A stretch of 64,000 bases of DNA from Rickettsiales bacterium (GTDB lineage: Bacteria; Pseudomonadota; Alphaproteobacteria; Rickettsiales; UBA998): positions 131,749-195,748 of the forward strand of contig JAXMDT010000003.1 of the NCBI GenBank assembly GCA_046348685.1, written 5' to 3'. The first letter of the stretch is position 1, and each line of letters starts with the position of its first letter. Shown here piece after piece: positions 1,975 through 34,720 of the stretch. The translations under genes were made by a program, and so were the position numbers. The notes under the pieces are model-generated. The model saw nothing but the letters and a program-made list of their open reading frames with translations. It searched no databases and was not told the origin of the DNA.

Positions 1975-1985
1975 AGCAAATGCTT

Positions 1986-3068: not shown

Positions 3069-3118
3069 GGCTGAAACATATGGTTAAGTTTACGCCTGAT
3101 TGCAACCTATAGACGTTA

Positions 3119-5650: not shown

Positions 5651-5708
5651 TTTTCTTATTCTCCATGGTAACCGGGCTTCTACGTCCCATTGTTCAACCT
5701 TGTTATTA

Positions 5709-6416
5709 TTATTTTGCCGCGATATCGCTCACGGTCATTGTCGCCTGCCGGTTCGAGCCGGAACCCGTCAGCAGGAAGTTGACACCCGTGCGGCGCTTTA
5801 GCTCAACGCCAGGAAATGCTTTTACTTCCTTGCCTTCAGCATCATTAACTGCCACATCGATAGTCAATGCATTGACCTCGCGCGATGCACTTTCACCTGC
5901 TTTCACGCCAGAAACAATATCCGCTTTCTGCTTCACCGCATTAAGTGAAGCCGTGGCGGAATCCGAAAAATTATAAAAGTAGATCATTGCTTTAGCTGGG
6001 TTTTTTATCACTGCATCTTCCAGCGTTACCAATTCTTTTTTTCCATCTTTTTCAGTAATGGCAACAGAATAATACTTACCAGCTTCAATAGAAACCTTTT
6101 TGCTTACATCACCTGCCTTTGCCTCCTGCTCGCCTTGTGGAATAACGCGGTAAGGGGAAATCCCAGGCGCAGCTACGGAAGTATAAGATGCACTACCTAT
6201 AGTTGCATCAACGGCAGTTGCTGTCGTATTAATAATCCGCACGAAAGCGGAATCTGCAGGAGGTGTTGGATCATAAAGAGCGGTATCGTCCGCCGCGCTC
6301 ACTTCCTTAGCGAAAGAAAAAACTGAAAATACAACCGCTAAAGCCAAAAAGTAACGCACGGAAACCCTCCTGTCATGACAATAAATGTTAAGCAATTTAT
6401 TAATGCGGGAATGCAT
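5709..6416 (-). CDS. algF: AlgF-like periplasmic polysaccharide O-acetylation protein
   Basis: 'AADDTALYDPTPPADSAFVRIINT' resembles the AlgF N-terminus 'GDAALYGP.AP.GS.FVRLYN', and two beta-rich halves follow. Start moved to ATG 6414-6416 (MHSRINK...), which gives a signal peptide and sits 1 nt after the algX-like stop. The listed start at 6464 would overlap by 47 nt. Confidence 0.7.
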   Translation of the reverse strand: MHSRINKLLNIYCHDRRVSVRYFLALAVVFSVFSFAKEVSAADDTALYDPTPPADSAFVRIINTTATAVDATIGSASYTSVAAPGISPYRVIPQGEQEAKAGDVSKKVSIEAGKYYSVAITEKDGKKELVTLEDAVIKNPAKAMIYFYNFSDSATASLNAVKQKADIVSGVKAGESASREVNALTIDVAVNDAEGKEVKAFPGVELKRRTGVNFLLTGSGSNRQATMTVSDIAAK

Positions 6417-6417
6417 A

Positions 6418-7914
6418 TCAGCCTTTCTTGTCTTTTTCAATGTTGTTCTTGCTATTTGGGGCAAGACATAATCTCACATTGATGTCTGCCTTTACAGGCA
6501 AAGGGTTAATTAATGACACGCTTGTTAAGGCATCATTATCAATTTCATCGCTGAGTTCTACGAAAAAGCGGCCAGTATTTTTGAAATGTGATGAACGATC
6601 AATAGGAAACCATTCGCCATCACCGTCACCATAATCCAACTGAAGAGTAAATTTTGCTAATCCTAAATTGGAAACAGAAAGGAAAAGATAATAATCTTTT
6701 CCTGTAATATTTTTTTCGGGATCGAAAGATAGTAACGGAGTCGTCGTATTTGGGCCGACAGAAACAGTCTGGCTTCCAAGAACATCCTTGCCTTTACATG
6801 CACCGTAAATCCCTGGGATAATTTGCCGAAACGCATTGGCGCTATTGGCATTGATATCATAATTGGAAGGAGCCTCCCAAATTAAGAAGGGCGGCTTTGC
6901 GGATTCAAATTCTTCCGAAGATGTATAGGAAATAATTGAATTATAAAGCAGTCCACCATTGATAGCGTAATTTGCCAGTTCAAGGCCGGTTGCCTGAGCC
7001 AGAAATCCTTCAAAGTTGAATTTTTCTTCGGCGCTAAAGCTCGTACCCACTAAAACAGAGGGAGGCGAGCTATCCGCACCGCCGCCAAACAAATCTTCGG
7101 CTTTTTCTGAGCTTTTTTGACGGGTGATGTAAATGGGGAATTCTTCACCGGGAATATCTTTTTCACAGATGCGCTGAATTTCTTGAGCCATAAAATATTT
7201 CAGAAACTGTTTTTCTTTGAATGTCGTCTCGTATTTTTTTTTGGGCAAGGCATTATATTTTTCTGACTTTGATAGCTCGTCACGCACAAGGTTTGAGGAA
7301 AGCCTGGCTCCATAGGGCATCCAGTGGTGGTCACGTTTAAAGAAAAATGTCTCGCCGTCTGTGCCGACTTTATCTGCCATAGAACCCAGATCAGGTGTAA
7401 TGATGCCCATATTACGGAAAGATTGCAGGTAGTCGTGAAAGTTATGTTTTGCCCGTTCGATGGAATAATTTTTCATCACGGGTTCAGTATCATCAAAAAA
7501 TGCTTCGCCTATCCACGACCGCGGAGGGATAGTAACGAAAACCGGTGTAATGTTTCGTTGCTGAAGTGCTGCTGCGTAGCGCTTTAGATAAAAGCGCGCC
7601 TCGGAAAACAAATTAAAATTTTCAGAAAAATCCATCTCCTCGCGGAAGAACCACCCATTCGACCCTTGAAGGAATGTGCCATAATCTGTTTTTTCATGAT
7701 CCGCCAGGCGCGGACACGAAAATTCCTTTTCGCCAGCCAGATGCAACTGACGTTTTACCGGCTTGGCAATTTTTTTGCTGTCTTTTTTATTGTGATTAGA
7801 ATTTTTGCCAAAGGATTTTGCCGCCTCTTTAGGCGTTGAACCTGTTTGTGCAAACGCCATACACGGCGTACAAAGGGCTGCAAGCAGCAGAAAGCTTAGA
7901 AAATTTATGCGCAT
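6418..7914 (-). CDS. AlgX-like SGNH-type polysaccharide O-acetyltransferase with C-terminal beta-rich (carbohydrate-binding-like) domain
   Basis: 498 aa with signal peptide 'FLLLAALCTPCMAFA'. It has the catalytic-type motifs 'KRDHHW' (D-x-H-W) and 'VGTSFS' (G-x-S-x-S) as in AlgX/AlgJ. Size is close to AlgX. Confidence 0.75.
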   Translation of the reverse strand: MRINFLSFLLLAALCTPCMAFAQTGSTPKEAAKSFGKNSNHNKKDSKKIAKPVKRQLHLAGEKEFSCPRLADHEKTDYGTFLQGSNGWFFREEMDFSENFNLFSEARFYLKRYAAALQQRNITPVFVTIPPRSWIGEAFFDDTEPVMKNYSIERAKHNFHDYLQSFRNMGIITPDLGSMADKVGTDGETFFFKRDHHWMPYGARLSSNLVRDELSKSEKYNALPKKKYETTFKEKQFLKYFMAQEIQRICEKDIPGEEFPIYITRQKSSEKAEDLFGGGADSSPPSVLVGTSFSAEEKFNFEGFLAQATGLELANYAINGGLLYNSIISYTSSEEFESAKPPFLIWEAPSNYDINANSANAFRQIIPGIYGACKGKDVLGSQTVSVGPNTTTPLLSFDPEKNITGKDYYLFLSVSNLGLAKFTLQLDYGDGDGEWFPIDRSSHFKNTGRFFVELSDEIDNDALTSVSLINPLPVKADINVRLCLAPNSKNNIEKDKKG

Positions 7915-7962
7915 TCATCCGCTTTTTACAGCAAAACTGCGCTTCTCGCAAAGGTACAAGTC

Positions 7963-8649
7963 TTAACGCGTGGTAACGGAAGGTGTGACAAATCCGTATT
8001 TTAAGAGAAGTATCACCAGCTTGTAGAGAACTACCGCATTGATGAGATGCCACAAGAAATGCGTGCCTATGTGTAGCATGGGACACACTTCCAGGTCGAT
8101 GGTGCGAAAGACAAGCGATGCGGTCCATATAAAGACCACGTTGCGCAATGCGTTAAAGGCAGGGTGCGATAATGTGCGCAGCGCACCGAGGAGAAGAATC
8201 AGCACCGCGTAGGCGGGAATATACATAATTGTCCCGTGGAGCAGGTCATTCGGCAAAGCAATCTCAAAAAGATAACTAATGCCGACAAAAGCAATCCAGC
8301 AACCGATAGACGGCCAAATGCCGAAACGGATAATCCGTACCAAAAAAATAACGAGATAAAAATGAATGAATAAGGCAATCGGTATAACATCGCCCAGCAT
8401 GGCTTTTTGCGTTGCGATGGTATGCCATGCCGTGCTTCCGATACCGATGGCGACAAGTAATACAGTCAAAATTAAAATATCGATGCTCTGGCGTAGCGGA
8501 ATCTGTTGCTTGCGATATGCGGTAAATGCAAGAAAGGCGGCAATGATAAATGCAAGATTGGTGATTGCATTTAACGGTTCTGCCCAGAATCCGGCGTCGC
8601 CGGCACGTTCGCAGTAACCATCCAGGTAAGTTAATTGTGTGTCGGTCAT
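7963..8649 (-). CDS. Ceramidase-family (CREST-type 7TM hydrolase-like) membrane protein, paralog 1
   Basis: 228 aa and polytopic. The N-terminus 'YCERAGDAGFWAEPLNAITNLAFI' resembles the alkaline-ceramidase entry motif, and internal 'WH' and C-terminal 'GTHFLWH' (H-x3-H) are present. Same strand as the algX-like gene, 48 nt upstream of it. Confidence 0.5.
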   Translation of the reverse strand: MTDTQLTYLDGYCERAGDAGFWAEPLNAITNLAFIIAAFLAFTAYRKQQIPLRQSIDILILTVLLVAIGIGSTAWHTIATQKAMLGDVIPIALFIHFYLVIFLVRIIRFGIWPSIGCWIAFVGISYLFEIALPNDLLHGTIMYIPAYAVLILLLGALRTLSHPAFNALRNVVFIWTASLVFRTIDLEVCPMLHIGTHFLWHLINAVVLYKLVILLLKYGFVTPSVTTR

Positions 8650-8663
8650 AGCCTGAAGATAGA

Positions 8664-9380
8664 TTAGGCGAAATGCTCCGCCGCTTTGCGCAGCATGCGC
8701 GCACGTCGGTTGACGTTTCGCACAAGCTGTTTGACGAGAATAAAGATTAGCACGGCATTCAAACTGTGCCAGAGAAAATGTGTGCCAAAGGGAATCATGT
8801 CACAGACATAGTTATCAACAGAACGGAAAAACAGCGAAACGACTCCGATGATTGAAGCGACGAGAAATTTTCGCGCTGAAAAACGGCGCTTCATATTTAG
8901 GTGCAGTGCAAAAAGAATTAGCGCAGTCATGCTGGAAAGATAACCAATCGAATCATTCATGGCATTTGGAAATGCGTTTACCAGCATATGCGTGCCGCCT
9001 GCATAGGCGACGAGTCCGATAAAGGCCTGCAGCCAGTTGCACTTAGCAATGCGGAACAAGGCGCTCGTAAAGTAGATCACGATGAACCCGACAATAAAGC
9101 TCATGTCGAGCAGCTCGGTAAGTTGGGAAGGCATGGTATGGAAAAAGAAGCTGGCGATTCCAATGCAGAAAGTCAGCAGGACTAGAAGGTAAATATCCCA
9201 GATCCAAAATCCCTTTAGGTCATCGCGAATGCTGAGCATGTAGCGCAGTAGTAGTATTGCTGCGATGATAAAGCCGAGGTTGGTGATGGTATTTAACGGT
9301 TCGCCAAAAAAATAGGTGGGATCAGTACGTTCACATAACCCGTAATGATGGCTTATTTCAGTATTCGCTCCTTCATTCAT
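8664..9380 (-). CDS. Ceramidase-family (CREST-type 7TM hydrolase-like) membrane protein, paralog 2
   Basis: 238 aa and clearly paralogous to 7963-8649: 'LCERTDPTYFFGEPLNTITNLGFI' and 'GTHFLWHSLNAVLIF'. The two genes are 14 nt apart. Confidence 0.5.
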   Translation of the reverse strand: MNEGANTEISHHYGLCERTDPTYFFGEPLNTITNLGFIIAAILLLRYMLSIRDDLKGFWIWDIYLLVLLTFCIGIASFFFHTMPSQLTELLDMSFIVGFIVIYFTSALFRIAKCNWLQAFIGLVAYAGGTHMLVNAFPNAMNDSIGYLSSMTALILFALHLNMKRRFSARKFLVASIIGVVSLFFRSVDNYVCDMIPFGTHFLWHSLNAVLIFILVKQLVRNVNRRARMLRKAAEHFA

Positions 9381-10215: not shown

Positions 10216-13200
10216 ATGGCTTACGATAACACAATCCTGCTCAGCGCTAATCCGCTTGAAATCACCCACCATCTGACAAATCTTTACATTCAAGAATTAG
10301 GCACGACAGACCCTGCCATCGCAGCGCTGCTTAGTGAATTCAGAAATACAATCTGGCCTTTCGATGGGAAGTTGCCATCCCTCCAAGAAAAAGAAGGTAT
10401 CACAGAGCGTATAATCAACGCTGGCAAGATGCATAGCTATACCGCACAAAAGCAGCTTCTGACAGGTATGATGCGGTTAGGCCAGCTCTACGACGTAGCG
10501 GCAATAGCGGCGAGAGGTAATGCATTCGATCAGAATAGAATAAAGCATGGTGAGGATCGGGTTTCAGACTCAACGGGGGGTGTTGAAAATTTATTTGAAA
10601 CCTTTATCGAGCGCCATAAAACGAAAAGCGTGCTTGAACGTACTTCGGCAGGTTCATCAGATCAATATGCGCTACAATTCGATAAACAACCGAACTCAGT
10701 AATTCGAGACACACTTTCTGCGTTAAGTAAGCCTATTTTTGAAATGGTTATGACAACGCACCCCACTAATGTGAATGCGTTGGAAAGCCTTGAGCAGCTA
10801 AGAAACTTAGGAAAAGCGATTCATACTTATCGTAAGAACCAAGGCGATGACCTAAATCAACTGCAAGCAATGCAGGGTGCCGAGGAGCAAATAAAAACCG
10901 CCTTCAGCGGTTTGATGACGGTAGATGCTATCCCGATGAAGCATACGGAAAGTGGTAAAATTCCCGGCAAACTTTCAGTGCGCGGCGAAGTGGATATGGT
11001 GCTTTTCTACTTGAAAAGCCTGTATGATGATTTGCCTCAGGTTTATCGTGGCTTTGAACAACCGCTACGGCGCCTGCAACGTAAGCAGATTATTTCGCCT
11101 GACGAAATTTATAACCCTCTTGATTTAAAATTGAACATCCGTGCGAGTGCCTGGGGCCTTTCCGGTGACAAGGATGGTAACAAAAACATCAATGCCGATA
11201 CAACTCTGGAAGCGTTGTTAGCGACGAAAGTCGCGTTAATGGATTTATATTTGAAAGAAATTGCCGGTCTCTCCGAGAGTGTGCAGGCGCGGCTTCACAA
11301 CAAAATAAATGATTTCACGGAGCGAAAAACTGCCTACGAGAAAGGTTTGCAGGAGGTCGAGGAATTTATTGGTAGCGAGAAATTTATACCTGCAAGGAAA
11401 TTTAATGCGATCGTACGAAAACTACCAAAACCGGACAAAACGGAGGCGAGGGATTTTGTCGCGCTGTTAGAGGAGATTTATAACACTACGCCTGAAGAAG
11501 AGCGTGCAGGTCTCCTTACATTTATCCGGCGGGTGCGCTCGTTTGGATACCATTTTGCTAAAATCGAATACCGTGAGACTGCAGAAGAATATGCGCGAGT
11601 CGTAGCGGAAATCGTCCCCGGTTACAAAGCGCTCCATGAGCGTGGTATCGCCCTTAAAAACGATCTGGAGAATCTGGAAAATACCGCGCGGGTCGCTTCT
11701 CAAAGGGAAGGATTGCTTGCAGAATTCGCTGCAGTGGAAAAGGCTTCCAAAGCTATTGGTTCTGCTGAAAATCCGCTTACAGACGCGGAGTTGCGCGAAC
11801 GCATAAGACGCCTATCGCGTTCCGTAGATCCAGGCGATCAGGTGGAAACAGACGATGTTGGGCTTATGCCGTTGCAAAAAGGTGCGTTGCTGAAACGGCT
11901 TGATGCATTACGGGGAAAACTCCATGCTTTGAAATCTCCCGACGATATCCAGGATGATCGCCGAAAACTGCATCGGGAGCTGGACGAAATCGAGGCCAGG
12001 AAGCGATCTTTGCTAACGGAAGCACTCGATAATAACAAAGCACCGGCGATGTTGAAAAAGCACATGCGTCAGATTGTTGATGAAGGCAGCGCAAGACCCT
12101 ACGATAAAGAAACGGATCATCCGCGCAATGCAATGCCGATCGCGTATCATACTATTAAGCGGATGGAATTGGCTCGTGAATTCCCTGAGATGATCACAGC
12201 TAATGTCCTGGCGGAATGCCAGAATACCAGTAATATCCTGGAAGCCGTTTTCCTGCAGGCTGCCTGTGCGGATAAAAATGGCAAACGGCCCATAATGGGC
12301 GTCGTGCCGCTTTTTGAAGAACCCGACACCATGAAAAACGTGGGTACCATCATGGGCGATGCATATCGAAATCACGCATATGATAAACATATGAACCTTG
12401 TTGCCAAGCACCTGGGAGAAATGGGCTGGACTGATGGCGCCAAGCGCCAGCAGGTGCAGATCGCGCATAGTGATAATGCACGCCGCTCAGGATTTCTGGC
12501 GGCGCGCGCGTTTATCGACGAAGCGCATAAGGAGATTCGGGCGCTGAACAAGCAGTACAACATTAAGACCGAATTCTTCGAAGGAGGAAGTATCTCCGAT
12601 TCGTATCGTGGCGGCGTGCGCTCGATTTCGGCGGCGGTTAATGAATATGGTCTGCATGACTTTATGAAATTCACGTTTCAGGGCGGTGACCTGCCTAATT
12701 ATTTCGGTTCACCCGGCTCAACCGTTCGCTTGTTTACGCGGAATCTGGCGCACGCGGCAAAGCAGTTAAGCGACAACGGCGAAGCTGAGTATAAGGAAAC
12801 CGACTCCAATATCACCAACTATAGTGAAATTGCTCAGGAAGCACTCAAGAAAACCTTGCCGGATTACCAGAGAAATATCTTTAACCAGGCGATGATGGGT
12901 AATTTCATGAAATATGCAGTCGATCCCTATGGCAACGTGGGATCGCGCGCCGGGGCAAGGGGTGGCGCGGCGCAAACTGACCCGGATAAAGTACGCACCA
13001 TCGGATTCAGCGAAATGTTTCAACATGCAGGCGCACATCCTGCATGGCTGGGAGCCGAAACGCTCGCCGCTAATTTGGCGCAGGAGATTTTAACGCGCCT
13101 TCCCTCAACGGCAGGGCTTTATAGCGACTATGTGCCTGTCACTATGAAAAAAGGGGCGCAGGTGGAAGATGTTTTCTTTCTGCCCGCTGATGGAGATGTC

Positions 13201-13896
13201 AAAAAAGTAGATCCTGCCATTTATGGCGTTTTTTACGATAAATCTGCGGTGTTCCGAAATGCGGTGGATGGCATGGCATTTGGCTTAGCTGTCAGCAATC
13301 TCGATGCCTTGAAAAAGAATTATCCAATGCTTGCTGAAGATCCCTTTGTGAAGCGGATGGAAAGGGATTACCGTGCAGCAGCGCATATTGCGCTTGGCGC
13401 CCTGCACGAGCCTGCAAATGGCCCTGAAAAATTTACTGGAAACCATCGTGCGCGGGCACGCAAGGAAACGGATGCCCGCATGATTGCCCTCGACCCGACA
13501 GTACCGCTTTCAGTGCTAAGGGAAAAAATTCGTGAGCGGTTACCCCATCTGCAGGCATCGATTGAGCAAAAAGGTGCGTTGTTCGATGCGGTGGCAAGCA
13601 TGAAGTCCAGCTGGCGCCGGGATTGGGAATGGCAGGCGGCAGAGGAAAAAGACAGCACGTTCAAGGTGCCGCGCGAAGACGATATTCAGCATGGCTGGAT
13701 GCTGCATCTGGCGCATGGCGCTATCGATTCAGTGACGCACGGGCGCTACCTTATGGCGGATGATCCTATGTATATGCGGATGATCTATCCTGAATATTAT
13801 GCATCCTTAAGTACGAAGCGGAAGCTCCACCAGGAAGAGCCAACAAAGCTTCATATTCGGGTCGATACGCCGCAAGGTGGCAGAGCAGGACGTTAA
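10216..13896 (+). CDS. Phosphoenolpyruvate carboxylase-like protein, very long and highly divergent
   Basis: 1226 aa. PEPC landmarks are visible in the correct order. These are 'VMTTHPTNV' (cf VLTAHPTE), 'VVPLFEEPDTMKNV' (cf VVPLFE..DL.N), 'VQIAHSDNARRSGFLAA' (cf VMIGYSDSAKDAGVMAA) and 'FFEGGSISDSYRGG' (cf FHGRGGSIGRGG). They continue with 'KFTFQGGD' (cf RVTEQGE) and 'VRTIGFSEMFQHAGAHPAWLGAE' (cf [24 protein letters not shown]). Confidence 0.7.
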   Translation: MAYDNTILLSANPLEITHHLTNLYIQELGTTDPAIAALLSEFRNTIWPFDGKLPSLQEKEGITERIINAGKMHSYTAQKQLLTGMMRLGQLYDVAAIAARGNAFDQNRIKHGEDRVSDSTGGVENLFETFIERHKTKSVLERTSAGSSDQYALQFDKQPNSVIRDTLSALSKPIFEMVMTTHPTNVNALESLEQLRNLGKAIHTYRKNQGDDLNQLQAMQGAEEQIKTAFSGLMTVDAIPMKHTESGKIPGKLSVRGEVDMVLFYLKSLYDDLPQVYRGFEQPLRRLQRKQIISPDEIYNPLDLKLNIRASAWGLSGDKDGNKNINADTTLEALLATKVALMDLYLKEIAGLSESVQARLHNKINDFTERKTAYEKGLQEVEEFIGSEKFIPARKFNAIVRKLPKPDKTEARDFVALLEEIYNTTPEEERAGLLTFIRRVRSFGYHFAKIEYRETAEEYARVVAEIVPGYKALHERGIALKNDLENLENTARVASQREGLLAEFAAVEKASKAIGSAENPLTDAELRERIRRLSRSVDPGDQVETDDVGLMPLQKGALLKRLDALRGKLHALKSPDDIQDDRRKLHRELDEIEARKRSLLTEALDNNKAPAMLKKHMRQIVDEGSARPYDKETDHPRNAMPIAYHTIKRMELAREFPEMITANVLAECQNTSNILEAVFLQAACADKNGKRPIMGVVPLFEEPDTMKNVGTIMGDAYRNHAYDKHMNLVAKHLGEMGWTDGAKRQQVQIAHSDNARRSGFLAARAFIDEAHKEIRALNKQYNIKTEFFEGGSISDSYRGGVRSISAAVNEYGLHDFMKFTFQGGDLPNYFGSPGSTVRLFTRNLAHAAKQLSDNGEAEYKETDSNITNYSEIAQEALKKTLPDYQRNIFNQAMMGNFMKYAVDPYGNVGSRAGARGGAAQTDPDKVRTIGFSEMFQHAGAHPAWLGAETLAANLAQEILTRLPSTAGLYSDYVPVTMKKGAQVEDVFFLPADGDVKKVDPAIYGVFYDKSAVFRNAVDGMAFGLAVSNLDALKKNYPMLAEDPFVKRMERDYRAAAHIALGALHEPANGPEKFTGNHRARARKETDARMIALDPTVPLSVLREKIRERLPHLQASIEQKGALFDAVASMKSSWRRDWEWQAAEEKDSTFKVPREDDIQHGWMLHLAHGAIDSVTHGRYLMADDPMYMRMIYPEYYASLSTKRKLHQEEPTKLHIRVDTPQGGRAGR

Positions 13897-14060: not shown

Positions 14061-16334
14061 TTAGTTGAAATCGGCGAAGTTGCCTTCGGTCAGGCTCGCC
14101 AGTTCCGTATGCGTCACGCCTTGCAGACGGGCCACAAACTCAAGTGTATCATCAACTGCCGCTAAACTGCCTGGATTCGCGACTTCCGTAATTCGAACGA
14201 GACGGGCATCGGTCCCGTTGCTTACCAGCGCGTAAATAATATCTCCGGTTGCCAGATCGTCGGCAATGCCGCTCAGCGCCGAGTAGATATCTGCCTCAGA
14301 GAAACTGGCTACAGTATTCGTAGCGACGTAAATTCCGGCGTTGGCATCAAGGGTCTGCGCAGTGCTGGCGTTGCCTTGCGCGAATTCGATTCCAGTACCG
14401 CGCAGGCTGCCAACGCTTAGATCACTAAAGTCAATGACATCGGCCTCGCCGGTAAAGGCGTCGGTCACAAGGTCAATCAGTGTATCGCTCGCCGCAAGTT
14501 CAGCAATTTTATACGAGAAGGTATCCGCACCCAGTCCCCCGGATATTGTGTCAGCGCCAAGGCCGCCTGCGATGGTATCATTGGCGAGCCCGCCATTTAT
14601 ACTGTCTTCATTAGCGCCGCCTGTAATGCTGTCGCTGCCTTCTCCGCCGCGAATCGAGCTATCGGCAATACCGTCAAGGGCAATGCCTCCGTCCCCAGCA
14701 AGAATGGTATCGTTACCCGCACCTCCGGTGATCGTATCAACGCCATCGCCACCATTCAGGCTATCTGCCCCATCGCCACCGGTCAAAATGTCGTTGCCCG
14801 CGCCGCCGGTAAGGGCGTCACCCTTGCTGCCTGCAATCAATTGATCATTATTCGCCGTGCCGGAGAGGGCGGCTGTCGTCGTGCCGCCGACATTTGACAG
14901 GAAGACCGAGCCATCGCCAAAGGTCAGGTTTATCGCGGTGAATGTTCCGGCGTAATTCTGGAACACATAAGCACCGAGCCCTGCGCCAAAATTGTTTGTA
15001 AGTGTCGCTGACGAACCGAGATTGGTAGCGACAATGTCAATGGCAGAGCCACCGGATAGAGTAATTTGCGCCGAATCCGTTTTTTCGAAATTAGTAAATG
15101 TTACCGTCGCATCCGAGATCAGTGCAGAATCGTTGATCTTGAAGATATCATTTCCGGTGCCGCCATCAACCGTCAGCCCTGAGGAATTGGCGCGAGCGCC
15201 GCTGATAACGATCGTATCGGCCGCAACGCCGCCAAAAATCGCCAACGTTTCGCCCGCTGCAAGATTTGCAGTAGAAGTGATCGTATCCGCGCCGCCATTA
15301 CCATAAACGTAGGTATGATCGCCGGCGCTTCCGGAACCAACCAGAATGGTGTCGGCGGTATCGAGACTATCGCCTGCCCCGTTGCCACCGTAAATAGTTA
15401 CATTGCCCAGATGCGAGGTTGTATCAATGGTATCGGATCCGCGGTTTCCATAAATCAACAGCTTGCCTAGTGAACCCGTGCCGCCAATATCCCCTGATAT
15501 CGTGTCTGCTCCTGCACCGCCCGTCAAAATTTGTGACGCAGTAGCGGCAAAATCATCATAGAAAAGCACGTCATCACCGGCATTGCCATGCACGGCACTA
15601 TTGCCAAGGCCGCTGGTTAAAATATCAGCACCATCGACGGTATCGGCCGAGGTCGTATTGCCTAAAATGGTAATCGAGCCGGTGGCGCCGGCGCCGTTTA
15701 TCGTATCGTTGCCACGGCCACCGTACACATTAACAATACCTGCTGCATTACTGATGATTACGTTGTCGTCTCCAATTCCCACGCGCACGATAGATGTCTT
15801 GCCAAGACCTGTTGGATTCGTGAAAATAACAGTATCGTTACCGGCGTTGGTAAAAATATGATTGTTTCCGCTGGTGCCTCCACCGCCGTTAATAACAATG
15901 CGGTCCCCGCCGTCTGTTGTGTCGCTTTCACCTGTTCCCCCGTACACAATGTTGTCGTCGTTACCGACGGAAATCGTATCGGGGCCGCCCATGCCGAAAA
16001 GTACATTTGACTTATTCAAGTAAGACGATGCGCTACCGAACAGGTCGAGCGGCCCTAAATCAGTTTGGCTAAGGTCATCATCAGTCGTCGTAAGCATGTT
16101 GTCACCAACTACCAGATGGGAATTCGTTTCAGCGAAAATGAAATTACTGGTGGTGATCTGGGCAAGGCTTATGCCCTTCAACTTTGTAACCTGAGCGCCA
16201 TGCGTGATGGTAACTCCTGCGCCGCTTTGCGCATAAACATAATCGCTGGCGCTGCCGGGCAGATAAAGAACGTCAGCTGCGGCTGAGAAATTGGAAATAG
16301 TGCCTGCAATAGAATTATATTGTATAACTGACAT
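14061..16334 (-). CDS. RTX / hemolysin-type calcium-binding repeat protein (probable type I secretion substrate)
   Basis: 757 aa, Gly/Asp/Thr-rich. There is a block of canonical nonapeptides 'GGAGNDILTGGDGADSLNGGDGVDTITGGAGNDTILAG' and many looser G-x-G-x-D units upstream. It has no Cys and no N-terminal signal peptide. Confidence 0.85.
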   Translation of the reverse strand: MSVIQYNSIAGTISNFSAAADVLYLPGSASDYVYAQSGAGVTITHGAQVTKLKGISLAQITTSNFIFAETNSHLVVGDNMLTTTDDDLSQTDLGPLDLFGSASSYLNKSNVLFGMGGPDTISVGNDDNIVYGGTGESDTTDGGDRIVINGGGGTSGNNHIFTNAGNDTVIFTNPTGLGKTSIVRVGIGDDNVIISNAAGIVNVYGGRGNDTINGAGATGSITILGNTTSADTVDGADILTSGLGNSAVHGNAGDDVLFYDDFAATASQILTGGAGADTISGDIGGTGSLGKLLIYGNRGSDTIDTTSHLGNVTIYGGNGAGDSLDTADTILVGSGSAGDHTYVYGNGGADTITSTANLAAGETLAIFGGVAADTIVISGARANSSGLTVDGGTGNDIFKINDSALISDATVTFTNFEKTDSAQITLSGGSAIDIVATNLGSSATLTNNFGAGLGAYVFQNYAGTFTAINLTFGDGSVFLSNVGGTTTAALSGTANNDQLIAGSKGDALTGGAGNDILTGGDGADSLNGGDGVDTITGGAGNDTILAGDGGIALDGIADSSIRGGEGSDSITGGANEDSINGGLANDTIAGGLGADTISGGLGADTFSYKIAELAASDTLIDLVTDAFTGEADVIDFSDLSVGSLRGTGIEFAQGNASTAQTLDANAGIYVATNTVASFSEADIYSALSGIADDLATGDIIYALVSNGTDARLVRITEVANPGSLAAVDDTLEFVARLQGVTHTELASLTEGNFADFN

Positions 16335-16494
16335 AAGCTCTGCGCCTTAAATTGATATTACAATGACATAAGCATGAATCGTGCCAAGTGTAATCCTTAC
16401 CCATGAAAAATGGCTTAACGCATGGCTGCAAAGGCGCATTAACTAAAAAGTAGCAGTAGAGCCTTAGGATGAAACTGCACTATTGGGATCATTT

Positions 16495-17394
16495 ATGACC
16501 AAGATTCTTGCCGTCGATGATGAGGAATTTAATCTCGATATTCTTGTCGAATATCTGGAAGCGGAATCCTACACCGTCGTGCAGGCAACAAACGGCCAGG
16601 AAGCCTGGAAAAAACTCGAAGAAAATCCTGATGTCGCTGTGATCCTGCTGGATCGCATGATGCCGGTTATGGATGGAATGGCTTTCAATGCCAAAATCAA
16701 AGATGACAAGCGCTTCAAAGATATTCCAGTCATCATGCAGACGGCTGCCGCCGCACAGCACGAAGTGGAAGAGGGTATTAAGGCGGGTGTCTTTTATTAT
16801 CTGACCAAACCTTACCGCCGTGAAATGATGATGGGGATCGTCCGCTCAGCGATTTTGCACGGCGAATCCCTGCATACGATTTCTGAACAGTTGGACAAGA
16901 ACATCAGTGTACTCGGCCTGATGCGCCACGGCACATTTCAGTTCCAGACGCTGGAACAGGCGCATGTGCTGGCCAGCTTTATCGCTCAATGCTGTCCTGT
17001 TCCAACAAGTGCCAGCCTTGGTTTGAGTGAGCTTATGGTCAATGCAGTCGAGCATGGCAATCTGGGCATCACGTATGCGGAAAAATCAGCGTTGATTCAG
17101 TCAGGTACCTGGCAGCAGGAAGTGGAACGACGCCAGGCAGTACCTGAAAACCAGATGAAATTTGCTAAACTGGAATATCACCTGGATGGCGACTTGCTGC
17201 TTATTCGTATCAAAGATGAAGGCAAAGGCTTCGATGTCTCGCGCTATCTGAACATTGATCCGCTGCGTGCAACCCACCCTAATGGTCGCGGCATAGCCAT
17301 GGCGCGCCTGACAAGTTTTGATGATTTGGAATATATTGGCCCGGGAAATGAGGTGCTCTGTACCATTCGTCTCAAAAAGCACATGCTCAATTAG
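16495..17394 (+). CDS. Response-regulator receiver fused to RsbW/SpoIIAB-type serine kinase domain (HATPase_c_2)
   Basis: REC domain: 'KILAVDDEEFN...ILLDRMMPVMDG...TKP'. Kinase domain: N box 'ELMVNAVEHGN', G1 'DEGKGFD', G2 'GRGIAMAR'. Start set at ATG 16495; the listed TTG at 16483 is possible. Confidence 0.75.
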   Translation: MTKILAVDDEEFNLDILVEYLEAESYTVVQATNGQEAWKKLEENPDVAVILLDRMMPVMDGMAFNAKIKDDKRFKDIPVIMQTAAAAQHEVEEGIKAGVFYYLTKPYRREMMMGIVRSAILHGESLHTISEQLDKNISVLGLMRHGTFQFQTLEQAHVLASFIAQCCPVPTSASLGLSELMVNAVEHGNLGITYAEKSALIQSGTWQQEVERRQAVPENQMKFAKLEYHLDGDLLLIRIKDEGKGFDVSRYLNIDPLRATHPNGRGIAMARLTSFDDLEYIGPGNEVLCTIRLKKHMLN

Positions 17395-18558
17395 CTAAAT
17401 ACGCTGCAGGATAGCAATTGTCAGATCGTCCTCGACGCAGTCGTCACCGGTTGTTTCATAAAAAGCAGAAAGGATTGCCGTGAGCATCGTTTGCGGCGAC
17501 ATGGTTTTATTAAAGCGCTGGCATGTCGCCAGTAACCCAGACTCATCGAAAGCCTGATTTCCGACGCGTTGCTTTTCAATCAAGGCATCGCTGTAAGTGA
17601 TGAGTGTATCAAGCAACTGGAAGGGAGTGGACTGAGTTTTGTAAATGGTGTTTTCCTTGACGCTAAGCGGTAACCCATTGCCGCTCAACACGCGCAGGTT
17701 ACCGCCGGATTCTAAAATAATAGCGTTAGTGCTCGCTGCAACAGCATAATCAAGGCGGCTTTCAAGCAGGTTGATAACGCCATAAAACATGGTGGCAAAC
17801 TCCCGAGTCATCAGGATTTCGTGCAGATAATTATTCAACTCCGTCAGATAGTCGCCGGGACGGTTATGTAATGGCAATTTTGATTCAATCAATGTGTGCA
17901 GCCTGAATGTATTCATCGCGGCCATGACGCCGTGGCCGGCAAAATCAACTTGGTAAAGCGCGATTTCATGTTCGCTTATTTTTTTTATGCCCCAGAGATC
18001 GCCGCTCAATTCTTCAGAGGCAACAAAATGCGATGCTATTTTTAAATTAAAAAAATCTTCTAGCTTTGCAATGGATTCTTTACTGGGAAGAATGGACATT
18101 TGCATGGAAATTGCTTGCGAAAGTTCACTTTCCGTGCGTTCCTGATGCTGCAGCAGATTACGCTGTAAAATGCGGTTCTCCAGATGCACTGTGGCGCGTG
18201 CGATCAACTCCGCCGGGGAGATCGGTTTCAAAATAAGGTCTGTAGCGCCGGCGGCAAAGGCTTGCGTATGTTTTTCAGTGTCGGCCAGTGCTGTTTGCAC
18301 AATGACAGGCGTTGTATCATAGGGTGAAATACTGCGAATTTTCTTAAGGTAATCATACCCATCCATGCGCGGCATGATTAGGTCCAGCACAACGAGGTCC
18401 GGATTGAGTTTTACCGTTTGCTCAATGCCTTCTATGCCGTCGTTCGCAAAATAAACAGACTGGTACCCGGCATCCGAAAATATGCCGCTAATAATCGAAC
18501 GCCCTATGGCGGAATCTTCAATGACAAGAATTTTAGTAGCCTGATTGAAGGGCTGCAT
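17395..18558 (-). CDS. Response-regulator receiver fused to PP2C/SpoIIE serine phosphatase (RsbU-like)
   Basis: REC domain: 'KILVIEDSAIG...VVLDLIMPRMDG...LKP'. SpoIIE domain: 'SGDLWGI...DFAGHGVMAAM', 'ATMFYGVI', 'ITYSDALIE', 'EDDLTIAIL'. Confidence 0.85.
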   Translation of the reverse strand: MQPFNQATKILVIEDSAIGRSIISGIFSDAGYQSVYFANDGIEGIEQTVKLNPDLVVLDLIMPRMDGYDYLKKIRSISPYDTTPVIVQTALADTEKHTQAFAAGATDLILKPISPAELIARATVHLENRILQRNLLQHQERTESELSQAISMQMSILPSKESIAKLEDFFNLKIASHFVASEELSGDLWGIKKISEHEIALYQVDFAGHGVMAAMNTFRLHTLIESKLPLHNRPGDYLTELNNYLHEILMTREFATMFYGVINLLESRLDYAVAASTNAIILESGGNLRVLSGNGLPLSVKENTIYKTQSTPFQLLDTLITYSDALIEKQRVGNQAFDESGLLATCQRFNKTMSPQTMLTAILSAFYETTGDDCVEDDLTIAILQRI

Positions 18559-18560
18559 CG

Positions 18561-18866
18561 TCAGGACGCGATTGAAAACACTTTATCCAGCTGGGCCACT
18601 TCAAACATCTTTTTAACTTGCCCTTGTGGATTGTGCACGACCAGGGCTACCGATTTCTGGTCACATTTCTCTTTTAGCAAAAGCAGCATGCCGATGCCGG
18701 ATGAGTCGATGAACTCTAATTCCGCCAGATGCACGTTCACCTGCTTTGGTGCCGCTTGCTCCAGACGTTGGAACACGTCTTGAAAATGTTTGTAGTCGGC
18801 AAAGGTCAATTTGCCTTTAAACGTCATTGCGGTTGCATTTTCTGAGAAATTTTCTGCCAGTTCCAT
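18561..18866 (-). CDS. STAS-domain anti-sigma-factor antagonist (SpoIIAA/RsbV-like)
   Basis: 'LEFIDSSGIGMLLLLKE' carries the phosphorylatable DSSG serine motif. Start moved to ATG 18864-18866, preceded by GAGGTGG (listed start 18884). The stop lies 2 nt before the REC-PP2C start. Confidence 0.85.
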   Translation of the reverse strand: MELAENFSENATAMTFKGKLTFADYKHFQDVFQRLEQAAPKQVNVHLAELEFIDSSGIGMLLLLKEKCDQKSVALVVHNPQGQVKKMFEVAQLDKVFSIAS

Positions 18867-19043
18867 ATTTTCCACCTCTAACATTGTCGCGGATGAACAT
18901 TAATTTAGTCTTACCAAAAACAACATCTCGTTGAAAAAATTACAAAAGATCACATTAATATAGTATTTTAAGAACCGTCTATTCCATTGAGCATCAATCA
19001 TTCTTCTGTTACCACAAAGCATTGCAATGTGGGGAGTGTATCT

Positions 19044-26572: not shown

Positions 26573-27220
26573 ATGGCGCATCCCACGATGATGGCTGAAA
26601 TGCTGGCAACCAAGCTTTGTCATGATCTGACAGGGCCAATTGGTGCGGTTAATAACGGCGCGGAATTCATCAGCGATGAAGATTTCTCCATGCAGGGAGA
26701 CGCGCTGCAATTGATTACAGACAGTGCACGCGAGGCTTCGGTACGTCTGCAATTCTACCGTCAGTCCTATGGCAGTATCAAAGGCGCTGGCGAAGTTAGC
26801 CTGGCAGAAAAAAAACAGCTTGTTTCCGGGTTTTTTAAAAATAGCCGTATCCAGGTCGACTGGCCTGATCTTTATGCCGATGCCGGCAATGTCTCTTTGG
26901 CGCAGCGGACGTCGCGCTTGATGCTAAATATGATTATTATTGTAGCCGGCACGATGATTAAAGGCGGCACGCTGCACATCCGTATTGAACAGGATGGTGA
27001 TGCCGATAAGGTCATTACTATCAAGGCGGAAGCCGACGTACTGAAGGTCGATCCGGAGGTTTTAAAAATTCTTGATCGTTCCAGCGATGCGCCGGAAATG
27101 TCGCCGAAGAATGTCCAGGTTTATTTTACGGCCAATCTCGTCAATGAGCTCACCGTTACGCTTTCTCATGCGCATCAAGACGGAACATTTTCGTTAATTG
27201 CGCGTAAATCCGCGGCATGA
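26573..27220 (+). CDS. chpT: ChpT-family histidine phosphotransferase
   Basis: 'MLATKLCHDLTGPIGAVNNGAEFI' matches the Caulobacter ChpT 'LAARLCHDFISPASAIVSGLDLL' phospho-His helix. A degenerate CA-like C-terminal half follows. 215 aa. Confidence 0.8.
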   Translation: MAHPTMMAEMLATKLCHDLTGPIGAVNNGAEFISDEDFSMQGDALQLITDSAREASVRLQFYRQSYGSIKGAGEVSLAEKKQLVSGFFKNSRIQVDWPDLYADAGNVSLAQRTSRLMLNMIIIVAGTMIKGGTLHIRIEQDGDADKVITIKAEADVLKVDPEVLKILDRSSDAPEMSPKNVQVYFTANLVNELTVTLSHAHQDGTFSLIARKSAA

Positions 27221-27328
27221 CCGCCGCAGGTTTTTCTAAAATAAGTTGTATCCCTTTAAGAATCCATAAAAGTAGTTGTGTAATAATAATGATATCTATA
27301 CTTCATTAGCTTATGCACAGGGCCACCC

Positions 27329-30019
27329 ATGGATGATCTGATCAGTGAATTTATTACGGAAACCTCGGAAAGCATTTCGATGCTGGATCAGGAACTCGTC
27401 AAGCTGGAGCAGAATCCGGAAGATACCGAAATTCTTAGCAATATTTTCCGCCTTGTGCATACGATCAAAGGCACCTGCGGCTTTTTGGGGCTGCCGCGTC
27501 TTGAATCCGTAGCGCATGCCGGGGAAAATGTACTCGGAAGAGTTCGGGATAAGGAAATCCCGGCATCGCCCGCAGCAATTTCACTGGTACTTGAAGCGCT
27601 GGATGCTATACGCAATATCATTGAATATCTTGCCGCGAACGGCAAAGAGCCTGAAGGCAACGACGACAGCCTGCGTTCGCGGTTAAATGAGTTTGCGCTA
27701 AGTGGGGGTAAAAGCACCGCCGCCGCCGCACCGACACCGCCGCCTGCACCAAAAATAGAGCCTGCCGATCCACTCAATCCAACAGAAGCAGAACTACAAG
27801 CCATTTTCGACGCCGCTCCAGGTCCTGGCGAAGCGCCGAAGGCTTTCGCACAAGAGCCGGCGAAGAAAGAGGAAGCCGCTGCATCCGTGCCGGTGGCAAA
27901 AGAATTGCCAAAGGCGATCAAGGAAGAGGCCATTCAACAAGGGCTGAAAACCGATGCCAAAGCCGGTCAGGATGCCCTTGCCAATCAAAGCATTCGCGTC
28001 AATTTGGACGTCCTTGAAAATCTGATGCGCATGGTTGGCGAACTAGTATTGATTCGTAACCAGTTGCTGCAAATATCGCGTACACGTGACGATAGTGAAT
28101 TCAGCAGCCCGCTTCAGCAGCTCAGCCATATTACGACAGAGCTGCAGGAGGGCGTAATGAAAACACGCATGCAGCCGATCGGCAATGCATGGTCAAAATT
28201 TCCGCGCCTGATTCGCGACCTATCGATGGAACTCAATAAGAAAATTGAGCTTAAAATGCTCGGTGCGGAAACAGAACTGGATCGCCAGCTGCTGGAGTTG
28301 ATCAAGGACCCGCTGACGCACATGGTACGTAACTCTTGTGATCACGGCCTTGAAGGACCGGAAGACCGTCTTGCAGCGGGTAAGCCTGAAACCGGCACCG
28401 TGACGCTCAGCGCGTATCACGAGGGTGGTCATATTATCGTCGATATTATTGATGATGGGCGCGGCATTTCTATTGAACGCGTCAAAGCAAAAGCTATTCA
28501 GAACAAGCTGGCAACGGAAGCCGAGATCGAGCAGATGTCAGAGCAGCAGATCATGCAATTCATTTTCCGCGCTGGATTCTCGACGGCAGAGAAGGTGACC
28601 AGTGTGTCAGGCCGTGGCGTTGGAATGGATGTGGTCCGCACCAATATTGAAAAAATTGGCGGCACAGTCGAACTCCAATCCAAAGTTGGCTTTGGCTCGA
28701 CGTTCCATATCAAGATTCCGCTGACGCTAGCTATTGTATCCGTCATGATCGTCGAATCCTCAAAGCAGCGCTTCGCTATTCCGCAGATCAATGTCGTCGA
28801 ATTGGTGCGCACCGGCAAAGACGCCGAATACAAAGTGGAAATCATCAATGGCACACCGGTGCTTCGCCTGCGCGAAACGCTGCTGCCGATGATTTCGCTG
28901 GCAAAGGTGCTAGGTATGCCCGAAACACCGTTCGATCATAAAAAAGAAAACCGTTATGTTGTGGTATGCCGCGTTGGAGCTAATGATTTCGGCCTGATTG
29001 TTGATAGCATTTATGATACCGAAGAAATCGTCGTGAAGCCGGTTTCCGAGAAGCTGTCTCATATTAACGTCTATTCGGGAAATACCGTGCTCGGCGATGG
29101 TAGCGTTATTATGATCCTTGATCCGACGGGTATTCTGCGCCGCATTGAAGGCGAAGCGCTGTCTGCTGCAGCGAAGGGCTCGCTAAGCACGGAAACAACA
29201 GATGAACTGCTTGCTGAAGATATGGTCAGCTTCCTGCTATTCAGTACCGGTGTTGGTGCGCCCAAAGCGGTGGCGCTTGAGCTGGTGGCGCGGCTTGAGG
29301 AGCTGGATGCCTCGCAGGTGGAATACTCCAATGGGCGTCCTGTGGTTCAGTACCGTGAGGATCTCATGTTGCTCACCACGACCGGCGACATGCCTATTCC
29401 AACAGAAGGTGCATTTGAAGCCATCGTATTTGCTTATGACGGTAAGTCCGTTGGTTTGGTGGTGAAGGAAGTGCTCGACATTCTCTCCGCTCCGCCACGC
29501 GTCCAAATCGGCTCCAAGGATGATACGTATCTTGGCAGTCTGGTCATGAATGGACGCACGACAGATGTGCTTGATGTTGGCAAGATGCTTTCCCGCATTC
29601 TGAATATTTCTGCGCATGTGGTTGGCACCCTCGGTAATCACTCCCAAGATATCCGCGTCTTATTAGTGGATGACAGTATGTTCTTCCGCAATCTTACGGT
29701 GCCTTTCCTGACTGAAGTCGGCTATAAAGTAATGGCTGTTGCGGGTGCGGAAGAAGCGCTGGCGGCAATGAAGAAGCACCAATTCGATGTAATCGTTACC
29801 GATATCGAAATGCCAAAAATCGATGGATTCGAGCTCACGCGGCAGATTCGCAGATTACCGCAAGGTGCTGATTTAAAAATAATTGGTTTCACAGCTACGT
29901 TCAGTGACGCTATTCAGGAAAGAGTCGTGCAAAGCGGCATGGATACCTGCATCATGAAGATGGAGCGTGAGAAATTGATTCTTGCTATTGCACATCATAA
30001 TGAACTGGAGACGGTCTGA
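27329..30019 (+). CDS. cheA: Chemotaxis histidine kinase CheA, hybrid with C-terminal receiver
   Basis: HPt 'FRLVHTIKGTCGFLGL' and an Ala/Pro-rich linker. HATPase motifs are 'HMVRNSCDHGLE', 'DDGRGI' and 'GRGVGMDVV'. Two CheW-like regions follow, then REC 'VLLVDDSMFFRN...VTDIEMPKIDG'. Confidence 0.9.
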   Translation: MDDLISEFITETSESISMLDQELVKLEQNPEDTEILSNIFRLVHTIKGTCGFLGLPRLESVAHAGENVLGRVRDKEIPASPAAISLVLEALDAIRNIIEYLAANGKEPEGNDDSLRSRLNEFALSGGKSTAAAAPTPPPAPKIEPADPLNPTEAELQAIFDAAPGPGEAPKAFAQEPAKKEEAAASVPVAKELPKAIKEEAIQQGLKTDAKAGQDALANQSIRVNLDVLENLMRMVGELVLIRNQLLQISRTRDDSEFSSPLQQLSHITTELQEGVMKTRMQPIGNAWSKFPRLIRDLSMELNKKIELKMLGAETELDRQLLELIKDPLTHMVRNSCDHGLEGPEDRLAAGKPETGTVTLSAYHEGGHIIVDIIDDGRGISIERVKAKAIQNKLATEAEIEQMSEQQIMQFIFRAGFSTAEKVTSVSGRGVGMDVVRTNIEKIGGTVELQSKVGFGSTFHIKIPLTLAIVSVMIVESSKQRFAIPQINVVELVRTGKDAEYKVEIINGTPVLRLRETLLPMISLAKVLGMPETPFDHKKENRYVVVCRVGANDFGLIVDSIYDTEEIVVKPVSEKLSHINVYSGNTVLGDGSVIMILDPTGILRRIEGEALSAAAKGSLSTETTDELLAEDMVSFLLFSTGVGAPKAVALELVARLEELDASQVEYSNGRPVVQYREDLMLLTTTGDMPIPTEGAFEAIVFAYDGKSVGLVVKEVLDILSAPPRVQIGSKDDTYLGSLVMNGRTTDVLDVGKMLSRILNISAHVVGTLGNHSQDIRVLLVDDSMFFRNLTVPFLTEVGYKVMAVAGAEEALAAMKKHQFDVIVTDIEMPKIDGFELTRQIRRLPQGADLKIIGFTATFSDAIQERVVQSGMDTCIMKMEREKLILAIAHHNELETV

Positions 30020-30498
30020 TGAGCGGGCAATTGCAGGCAGTTGATAAATCCACTGCGATCTCGGTTGCTGATGTCTCCCGGCATGGTTACGTTACTGTCA
30101 GGGTGGCAAACCAACTATTCGGTATACCTGTCACAAACGTACAGGATGTACTTCGTGCACAGAAAATTTATGTCGTGCCACTGGCTCCCAAAGAAATTGC
30201 CGGTTCGATTAATCTGCGGGGTCGTATTGTGACGGTAATCGACCTTAGAAAACGTTTAGGCCTGCCGGATTTCGAAGCGGAAGCCAAGGTTATGCATGTG
30301 GTCGTTGAGTCAGGCGGGGAGCCTTTCAGTTTAATGGTCGATGCAGTAGGCGATGTATTAACTCTTTCACCGGAACGTGTTGAAAAAACTCCAACAAATC
30401 TTCGTGGCATCTGGCGCGAAGTCGCCACAGGCGTGTGTCGCTTGGATCAAGAGCTATTATTAATTGTAGATATTCAAGCTATATTAACATTTTCATGA
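30019..30498 (+). CDS. cheW: Chemotaxis coupling protein CheW
   Basis: 159 aa, with 'FGIPVTNVQDVL...PLAPKEIAGSINLRGRIVTVIDLRKRLG'. The start overlaps the cheA stop (ATGA). Confidence 0.9.
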   Translation: MSGQLQAVDKSTAISVADVSRHGYVTVRVANQLFGIPVTNVQDVLRAQKIYVVPLAPKEIAGSINLRGRIVTVIDLRKRLGLPDFEAEAKVMHVVVESGGEPFSLMVDAVGDVLTLSPERVEKTPTNLRGIWREVATGVCRLDQELLLIVDIQAILTFS

Positions 30499-30573
30499 AA
30501 TGATCGTAAATACCCGGAACAGCGCACTTAACCGGGATTTATTAAGCACGGATTATGTGTCTGGAGAGCGATC

Positions 30574-30942: not shown

Positions 30943-30956
30943 GAGATACCTTTAAA

Positions 30957-32105: not shown

Positions 32106-32106
32106 G

Positions 32107-33536: not shown

Positions 33537-33539
33537 AAT

Positions 33540-34693: not shown

Positions 34694-34720
34694 CTATACC
34701 TTCTAGGATTGAGCTCCGAC

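Follow-up and report, generated by a model that had tools for sequence, protein, structure and literature searches.

A putative split, doubly receiver-gated STAS partner switch in the genome of a Rickettsiales bacterium

In this study, we report the analysis of three adjoining genes from a Rickettsiales bacterium (GTDB lineage Bacteria; Pseudomonadota; Alphaproteobacteria; Rickettsiales; UBA998), which lie around positions 16,495 to 18,866 of a stretch of 64,000 nucleotides (NCBI GenBank assembly GCA_046348685.1, contig JAXMDT010000003.1, positions 131,749 to 195,748 of the forward strand), referred to here as the window. They encode a receiver domain fused to an RsbW-like serine kinase (REC-kinase), a receiver domain fused to a PP2C/SpoIIE serine phosphatase (REC-PP2C), and a small STAS-domain protein. 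As a variant of known partner-switching modules, the locus is split and doubly receiver-gated; it is built from two families already in the literature, and is not categorically new. Sequence comparison indicates that the feature is probably functional, and we consider it fairly probable that the trio works as one receiver-gated STAS phosphorylation switch. A sequence-only reading of the same DNA had proposed a single module of this kind, and the proposal gained support from the enrichment of PP2C genes beside the kinase family, the recurrence of the same layout in distant loci, and the existence of natural kinase-PP2C fusions.

In the proposed switch, the REC-kinase would phosphorylate the conserved serine of the STAS protein, its presumed substrate, and the REC-PP2C would strip the phosphate from it. 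Each enzyme would be switched through aspartate phosphorylation of its own receiver, and whether or not the STAS protein is phosphorylated would select its binding partner.

Gene organisation and catalytic residues of the trio

The features assigned to the three genes are listed below, with strand and basis of assignment.

16495..17394, plus strand: REC and RsbW-like (Bergerat-fold) serine kinase of the LvrC/TciR family, 299 amino acids (aa), MFO1242241.1 (Pfam, PDB 9qih match)
16504..16839, plus strand: receiver domain of the kinase, aa 4-115, with the codon of the phospho-acceptor D53 at 16651-16653 (Pfam, alignment)
17014..17358, plus strand: kinase/ATP-binding domain, aa 174-288, with N-box, G1 and G2 (Pfam, motif alignment)
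17395..18558, minus strand: REC and PP2C/SpoIIE serine phosphatase, 387 aa, MFO1242242.1 (Pfam, alignment)
18196..18531, minus strand: receiver domain of the phosphatase, aa 10-121 (Pfam)
17401..17973, minus strand: PP2C/SpoIIE catalytic domain, aa 196-386 (Pfam, alignment)
18561..18884, minus strand: STAS-only protein with a DSSG motif, 107 aa, predicted phospho-serine codon at 18702-18704 (Pfam, TIGR00377)

Gene boundaries were taken from the open reading frame (ORF) listing, which also offers a TTG at 16483 as a possible alternative start of the REC-kinase gene and an ATG at 18866 as an alternative start of the STAS gene, giving a product of 101 aa. The ATG at 18866 is probably the true start, because a related locus (L004, 83% identity) encodes a 101-aa STAS protein and the exact 107-aa product was absent from the protein collection. 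The REC-kinase gene runs stop-to-stop against the STAS and REC-PP2C genes, which follow each other in that order on the opposite strand. Its TAG (17392-17394) touches the reverse-strand stop codon of the REC-PP2C gene (17395-17397) with 0 nt between them, and the gap between the STAS stop codon and the phosphatase ATG is 2 nt (18559-18560). This geometry, read directly from the sequence, agrees with the earlier description, and the zero-gap convergent packing is also present in L004. Synteny with L004 was discarded as evidence of a functional link, the entire region being syntenic. Scanning for promoters and terminators, and searching the stop-stop junction for inverted repeats, returned nothing above chance.

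The three genes, their domains and their motifs, as first read from the letters, were borne out by Pfam hidden Markov models and alignments. The REC-kinase matched Response_reg (83.8 bits) and HATPase_c_2 (29.9 bits), the latter marginally (cut-off 27.4) and over profile positions 33-124 only. This marginal score is offset by the invariance of the N, G1 and G2 boxes and by the match to LvrC, a protein of solved structure, along the full length. Residues E179, N183 and H187-G188-N189 of the N-box, D241, G243 and G245 of G1, and G264-R265-G266 of G2 were invariant among 40 family members, and phmmer aligned residues 3-295 of the window protein with residues 5-296 of PDB 9qih (E = 1e-16). For the kinase domain alone, 9qih was the sole significant PDB sequence match (E = 1.5e-11). 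In Foldseek, the AlphaFold2 (AF2) model of the REC-kinase (predicted local distance difference test score, pLDDT, 88.5) had 9qih as its top match, in an alignment of 315 columns spanning the whole protein (E = 5.5e-17). By these comparisons the window REC-kinase is a member of the LvrC/TciR family.

The REC-PP2C matched Response_reg (86.5 bits) and SpoIIE (106.8 bits). Its four PPM acidic motifs (SGD, DFAGHG, SD and DDLT) and its phospho-acceptor D59 were invariant in 20 homologs, and the metal-binding-type residues D187, D205-G208-H209-G210, D324 and D377-D378 were likewise invariant in homologs. In the kinase receiver, D8, D9, D53 and K105 were invariant and T83 nearly so (40 homologs), and both receivers retain the acidic pocket, the phospho-acceptor Asp (D53 in the kinase, D59 in the phosphatase), the Thr and the Lys. 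The STAS protein matched Pfam STAS (56.8 bits) and NCBIfam TIGR00377 (anti-sigma factor antagonist; 55.9 bits, above cut-off). The serine of its DSSG motif (Ser61 in the 107-aa numbering, S55 in the 101-aa form) aligns with Ser58 of SpoIIAA, whose sequence, like those of RsbV, SpoIIAB, RsbW, RpoE, SigF and SigB used as probes or outgroups, is a rough reference only. All catalytic and phospho-acceptor motifs of the trio are thus intact, and the trio has the constituents of an RsbV/RsbW/RsbU-type switch: a STAS protein with the conserved serine, a kinase with N, G1 and G2 boxes, and a PP2C phosphatase with metal-binding aspartates. NCBIfam otherwise held no curated model naming the window proteins or their fused relatives, the matches being to receiver domains only and far below cut-offs.

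That neither a sigma factor nor a histidine kinase adjoins the trio, also noted earlier, held for the flanking ORFs. Pfam detected no sigma factor or HisKA kinase among the ORFs flanking the trio, within 8 kb, and a rough sigma-70-family reference probe found no sigma factor in the whole window. No other serine kinase is encoded in the window.

Linkage of the REC-kinase family to STAS and PP2C genes

The REC-kinase family is large: approximately 3,100 representatives (50% clustering) match its kinase domain on its own, and 1,755 of these do so at E <= 1e-10. Gene neighbourhoods were surveyed at 80 REC-kinase loci, one genome per species. ORFs of related loci were called mechanically, and many metagenomic contigs are short, so that absences from them are weak. 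PP2C genes accounted for 11 of the 136 genes adjoining a REC-kinase, compared with 2 of the 825 remaining genes (odds ratio 36, Fisher p = 2e-8, uncorrected for shared ancestry). Every partner kinase of the STAS/PP2C modules matched the REC-kinase-family profile, be it stand-alone, fused or of about 300 aa.

Several related loci, verified with Pfam, place these activities side by side, with gene orders that vary and in more than one phylum. In the SAR324 locus L032 a REC-SpoIIE gene is followed by a REC-kinase and a STAS gene; in L065 the order is histidine kinase, SpoIIE, REC-kinase, STAS and a second REC-kinase; Rhodocyclales loci carry a histidine kinase, a REC-kinase and a REC-PAS-SpoIIE gene in succession; and in L095 a REC-kinase precedes a REC-SpoIIE. 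The window's own layout, with STAS and REC-SpoIIE genes converging on a REC-kinase, was found in L161, where a hybrid HK-REC-REC-Hpt gene (HK, histidine kinase) lies behind the module, and the convergent layout is also present in L129 and L137. The layout is not peculiar to this genome; such a trio or a convergent arrangement recurs in distant lineages (L032, L161, L095). Among long proteins containing a REC-kinase unit, six of ten were SpoIIE fusions: four REC-kinase-SpoIIE, one SpoIIE-REC-kinase and one REC-kinase-REC-PAS-SpoIIE (P0334), the last keeping both receivers in a single protein. L155 provides a further REC-kinase-SpoIIE fusion. The phospho-serine was kept in 55 of 56 module-associated STAS proteins, which argues that the modules need a kinase.

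The window kinase is 41-57% identical to members coupled to histidine kinases and to module-linked members alike, as in one continuous family. In a neighbour-joining tree (no support values) the module kinases lie at the base, and linkage to PP2C/STAS turns up again at no fewer than six points of the REC-kinase radiation. Against the REC-kinase profile, SypE-type kinase domains scored 21-35 bits, and the rough reference sequences of RsbW and SpoIIAB 17.7 and 7.7 bits, respectively.

On the phosphatase side, the window protein belongs to a family of mainly alphaproteobacterial proteins of about 390-400 aa. In relatives at 42-45% identity, the STAS and REC-PP2C pair ends chemotaxis-like operons. 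Among 80 metagenomic loci centred on REC-PP2C, STAS genes were found in 43, Che genes in 16, and a kinase domain matching the REC-kinase profile in 45; the Che-linked loci typically show cheR-cheD-cheB, a gap of about 1 kb, and then STAS and REC-PP2C. About ten of the top 120 REC-PP2C relatives (36-42% identity) are fused proteins in the order kinase-REC-PP2C.

Several observations weigh against a functional link between the kinase and the STAS/REC-PP2C pair. Approximately ten of the PP2C adjacency cases come from a single betaproteobacterial block, and in 66 of the 80 REC-kinase loci neither a PP2C nor a STAS gene lies close by. Among non-syntenic relatives of the window kinase, the nearest (L005, 57% identity; L076 and L028) stand behind a histidine kinase, and their surroundings contain no STAS or PP2C gene. 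The REC-PP2C relatives at 42-45% identity have no adjacent kinase. The window genes converge, which means that the kinase is not co-transcribed with the STAS/REC-PP2C pair. No member of the REC-kinase family has been reported to phosphorylate any substrate, and the authors of the study on the Vogesella member TciR (PMC12826045) found V. indigofera to be without an RsbV homolog. At the locus of the Leptospira member LvrC in L. noguchii, no STAS, PP2C or histidine kinase neighbours were seen, although we regard that locus as uninformative.

These points could be accommodated if the genes were coincidental neighbours, the REC-kinase being an orphan LvrC/TciR-type regulator with an unrelated target, such as a distant sigma factor, and the STAS/REC-PP2C pair a chemosensory output using another kinase. 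REC-kinase loci mostly have a histidine kinase only (46 of 80) or no detectable partner nearby (31 of 80), the phosphatase family is linked chiefly to Che clusters, and the synteny with the 83% relative is uninformative. We nevertheless judge coincidence unlikely. It does not account for the strong enrichment of PP2C beside the kinase family, for a convergent layout repeated in L161, L129 and L137, or for the recurrent kinase-PP2C fusions, and the window STAS protein keeps its phospho-serine while the 64 kb of DNA around it encode no other serine kinase. On the comparative evidence, the link between the kinase and the STAS/PP2C genes thus looks real with fair probability.

Other observations were made at the surveyed loci. 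Where no partner was detected, REC-kinase genes had no common neighbour (ParA-like, M48 peptidase, metallo-beta-lactamase-fold, DUF2383 and threonine synthase genes were seen). Just 5' of the SAR324 trio, L032 encodes a protein of 680 aa that combines a STAS domain with cyclic-nucleotide signalling domains, its composition being REC, adenylate/guanylate cyclase, PilZ and STAS (L032 3818-5857). Kinases of approximately 303-305 aa occur in Che-linked STAS/PP2C modules (L129 9270-10178, L137 1108-2019, L122 5468-6382); these have a REC-kinase-like length and a C-terminal kinase domain, whereas their first 170 aa show no more than a faint trace of a receiver and may be degenerate pseudo-receivers. 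REC-kinase units were also found fused to GGDEF-EAL (P0289, 764 aa) and to EAL (P0249, 711 aa), a hint of a link between the kinase family and turnover of cyclic di-GMP that is reminiscent of HsbA-HsbD.

Comparison with described regulators and partner switches

LvrC of Leptospira, a virulence regulator, consists of a Rec and a Bergerat-fold domain, is phosphorylated by the histidine kinase LvrB and resembles RsbW and SpoIIAB dimers (PMC13269768, PDB 9QIH, April 2026). Vogesella TciR, a regulator of pigment production with the partner kinase TciK, shares this architecture, and according to its authors no protein of the kind had been characterised earlier (PMC12826045, December 2025). The architecture of the REC-kinase is thus a published one. 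The window protein shares the REC and Bergerat-fold architecture and the length of LvrC and TciR, but each of these is paired with a histidine kinase, whereas the window member has no adjacent kinase. Such a neighbour, which adjoins the REC-kinase in 46 of the 80 surveyed loci, is frequent and not a strict feature of the family. The window member further differs in adjoining a STAS/REC-PP2C operon; no connection of LvrC or TciR with STAS or PP2C genes is made in either paper. The LvrC ortholog of Leptospira noguchii str. Hook appears as two ORFs, a 94-aa REC and a 198-aa HATPase_c_2 (L170 8684-9597), which suggests a frameshift or an assembly error.

Both LvrC and TciR have been proposed as anti-sigma factors, for a sigma factor that the authors do not name (PMC13269768, PMC12826045). 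The window locus could accordingly be a partner switch of the classical kind whose sigma factor is unlinked, in which the kinase domain sequesters a distant sigma factor and the unphosphorylated STAS protein frees it, as in CrsR/CrsA-RpoS. The kinase domains of HsbR and CrsR bind RpoS, which is encoded elsewhere (PMC6482189), so that sigma independence does not follow from the lack of an adjacent sigma gene; the similarity of LvrC to the RsbW and SpoIIAB dimers points the same way. One related locus, the only classical-looking one, carries a sigma-70-family gene about 1.4 kb 5' of a STAS gene followed by a HisKA kinase and a REC-kinase (L054 4160-4894). A sigma factor is not consistently linked in relatives, however, as the sequence-only reading had required: rough reference probes covering the sigma-70 family only, and so of limited reach for a negative, gave 3 strong matches in approximately 165 related loci and none in the window, and SypA, HsbA-HsbD and All4160 are precedents for action on non-sigma targets. 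We consider an unlinked sigma factor rather unlikely as the target of the window kinase.

The comparative evidence offers a testable alternative to the sigma proposal for LvrC and TciR, namely that STAS proteins are what the family acts on, together with PP2C phosphatases. We tentatively suggest, at somewhat less than even probability, that the whole LvrC/TciR family consists of receiver-gated STAS kinases and not anti-sigma factors, descended from the kinases of chemosensory-linked STAS/PP2C modules. The window locus would then be the unfused, two-receiver form, comparing on one serine a histidine kinase signal that arrives by way of the kinase with a Che/Hpt signal that arrives by way of the phosphatase.

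The combination of STAS and serine phosphatase has likewise been described, as part of the F7 'stage 1' chemosensory clusters, whose function was called unclear (Ortega et al. 2020, PMC7184735). Many relatives of the window pair match the F7 order cheR-cheD-cheB-receptor-STAS-serine phosphatase. The window pair itself lies 8 kb from a Che cluster of other composition (ChpT-like, CheA-REC, cheW/cheY/cheB/cheR, no cheD), and it adjoins a REC-kinase, whereas the published F7 description mentions no kinase.

Of the fused forms, the closest by homology have the domain order of SypE of Vibrio fischeri, which phosphorylates the STAS protein SypA via its N-terminal kinase domain (PMC3610818). The SypE/SypA system and the window trio have in common the subtype of the serine kinase, the presence of a receiver, a PP2C domain and a STAS protein, and the lack of a sigma factor in the locus; the output of SypE/SypA is polysaccharide/biofilm. 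The fused relatives of the window REC-PP2C have the SypE order kinase-REC-PP2C, and their kinase domains match the window kinase profile; 'SypE-like' here means by domain order and literature and not by alignment to SypE. SypE is one polypeptide with one receiver, whereas the window has two proteins on opposite strands with one receiver each.

HsbR, the fused system cited earlier for comparison, is further away. Pseudomonas HsbR/HsbA and Shewanella CrsR/CrsA are Gram-negative systems in which a receiver-controlled PP2C and an RsbW-like kinase act on a STAS protein, with Hpt input and a sigma target that is not adjacent. HsbR and CrsR are, however, single proteins with a single receiver in the order REC-PP2C-kinase, whereas the window genes are split, and the fused relatives of the window phosphatase carry the kinase domain at the N-terminus, which ruled them out as HsbR-like. 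HsbR is fed by HptB; the ChpT-like phosphotransferase 8 kb away in the window is a candidate counterpart only.

REC-SpoIIE phosphatases acting on a STAS domain are known from Anabaena HenR/All4160/Alr3423 and from Bacillus cereus RsbY. The kinases of those systems carry no receiver domain, whereas the window kinase does. The output of HenR/All4160 is a polysaccharide enzyme and not a sigma factor, and RsbY belongs to a sigma-B operon. With receiver-fused switches (SypE, HsbR, RsbY, HenR) established and all its parts of known kinds, the single locus would not surprise specialists. What is documented here is a recurrent arrangement of the partner switch, with its two opposing enzymes, kinase and phosphatase, each under predicted phosphorelay gating of its own; it could serve to compare two signals or to sharpen the response to one.

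Inputs, output and surroundings of the window locus

The usual genomic partners of the two halves are HisKA kinases for the REC-kinase and Che clusters for the REC-PP2C. The kinase receiver would accordingly be fed by a HisKA-type kinase encoded elsewhere, and the phosphatase receiver by a Che/Hpt-type donor, possibly the nearest phosphorelay genes, which lie approximately 8 kb off.

26573..27220, plus strand: ChpT-like histidine phosphotransferase, candidate phosphodonor (Pfam HPTransfase, 80.8 bits)
27329..30019, plus strand: hybrid CheA-REC, candidate input for the REC-PP2C (Pfam Hpt, H-kinase_dim, HATPase_c, CheW, Response_reg)

In this cluster (26573-32919) the ChpT-like gene is directly 5' of the CheA-REC gene, which is followed by cheW, cheY, cheB and cheR, with no cheD or receptor gene; the order suggests a phosphorelay from CheA through REC to an Hpt-like protein. 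As donors for the REC-PP2C, ChpT and CheA are possible candidates only, with one parallel locus (L130, where HPTransfase and CheA lie about 2 kb from a related REC-PP2C) and a Che cluster in the window that is not in F7 order.

Distinct donors for the two receivers would make the switch a comparator of two inputs. The proposal of two separate inputs, made from the letters alone, stood in part. Identity between the two receivers is only 27%, and they differ in the alpha1 helix, which resembles that of the window's CheB and CheY receivers in the phosphatase receiver but not in the kinase receiver. The alpha1 comparison is weak evidence that agrees with the usual genomic partners, and two inputs are plausible for the window locus. 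On the other hand, a single input with reciprocal control is equally possible from the arrangement in other lineages. The same donor would then phosphorylate both receivers, turning the phosphatase on and the kinase off in a sharp switch. Rhodocyclales loci have a single histidine kinase gene before the REC-kinase and the REC-PAS-PP2C, a lone hybrid HK-REC-REC-Hpt gene flanks the L161 module, the single receiver of HsbR toggles both of its activities, and SypE likewise has one receiver. With the divergence of the window receivers, and with each half's family normally sitting beside a different donor class, we hold one shared input at this locus to be possible though somewhat doubtful.

For the output of the receiver-gated STAS switch, we offer a low-confidence guess, namely that it controls surface polysaccharide or biofilm post-transcriptionally and does not act through an adjacent sigma factor. 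The guess is drawn from analogy with SypA, HsbA and All4160 and from the polysaccharide and RTX genes in the surroundings. Precedents for STAS switches without a sigma factor mostly govern exopolysaccharide or biofilm (SypA, HsbA-HsbD, Anabaena All4160, S. meliloti beta-glucan).

The trio is preceded by an alginate-type polysaccharide modification cluster, an HSP20 gene, an atypical phosphoenolpyruvate carboxylase (PEPC)-like gene and an RTX protein gene. Beyond it lie an aldo-keto reductase gene, a heparinase II/III-like gene and housekeeping genes, then the Che cluster, so that the STAS/REC-PP2C pair is flanked by the aldo-keto reductase gene on one side and the REC-kinase on the other. The alginate-type exopolysaccharide cluster (window 19-8000) is unexpected in a genome labelled Rickettsiales, and contains the following genes.

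19-555 and 6418-7914: AlgX/AlgJ-like SGNH proteins
556-1974: MBOAT AlgI-like protein
1986-3068: alginate lyase
3119-5650: Sel1-repeat AlgK-like protein, 843 aa
5709-6464: AlgF

Three ORFs of 588, 211 and 397 aa (34709-37125 and 38831-40024) had no Pfam match at E <= 0.001. Tandem paralogs were found for ceramidase-like membrane proteins (two, 7963-9380) and for DUF192 proteins (two, 32916-34013). The PEPC-like gene (10216-13896) encodes a 1226-aa protein with a partial match to PEP carboxylase (residues 652-953 aligned with profile positions 481-772 of 919); it has the appearance of an atypical long enzyme and is conserved in L004. Divergent from the REC-kinase gene is a gene for a 757-aa RTX calcium-binding repeat protein (14061-16334), and L004 carries at the RTX position an extra 939-aa gene with heparinase II/III, RTX and peptidase M10 C-terminal domains.

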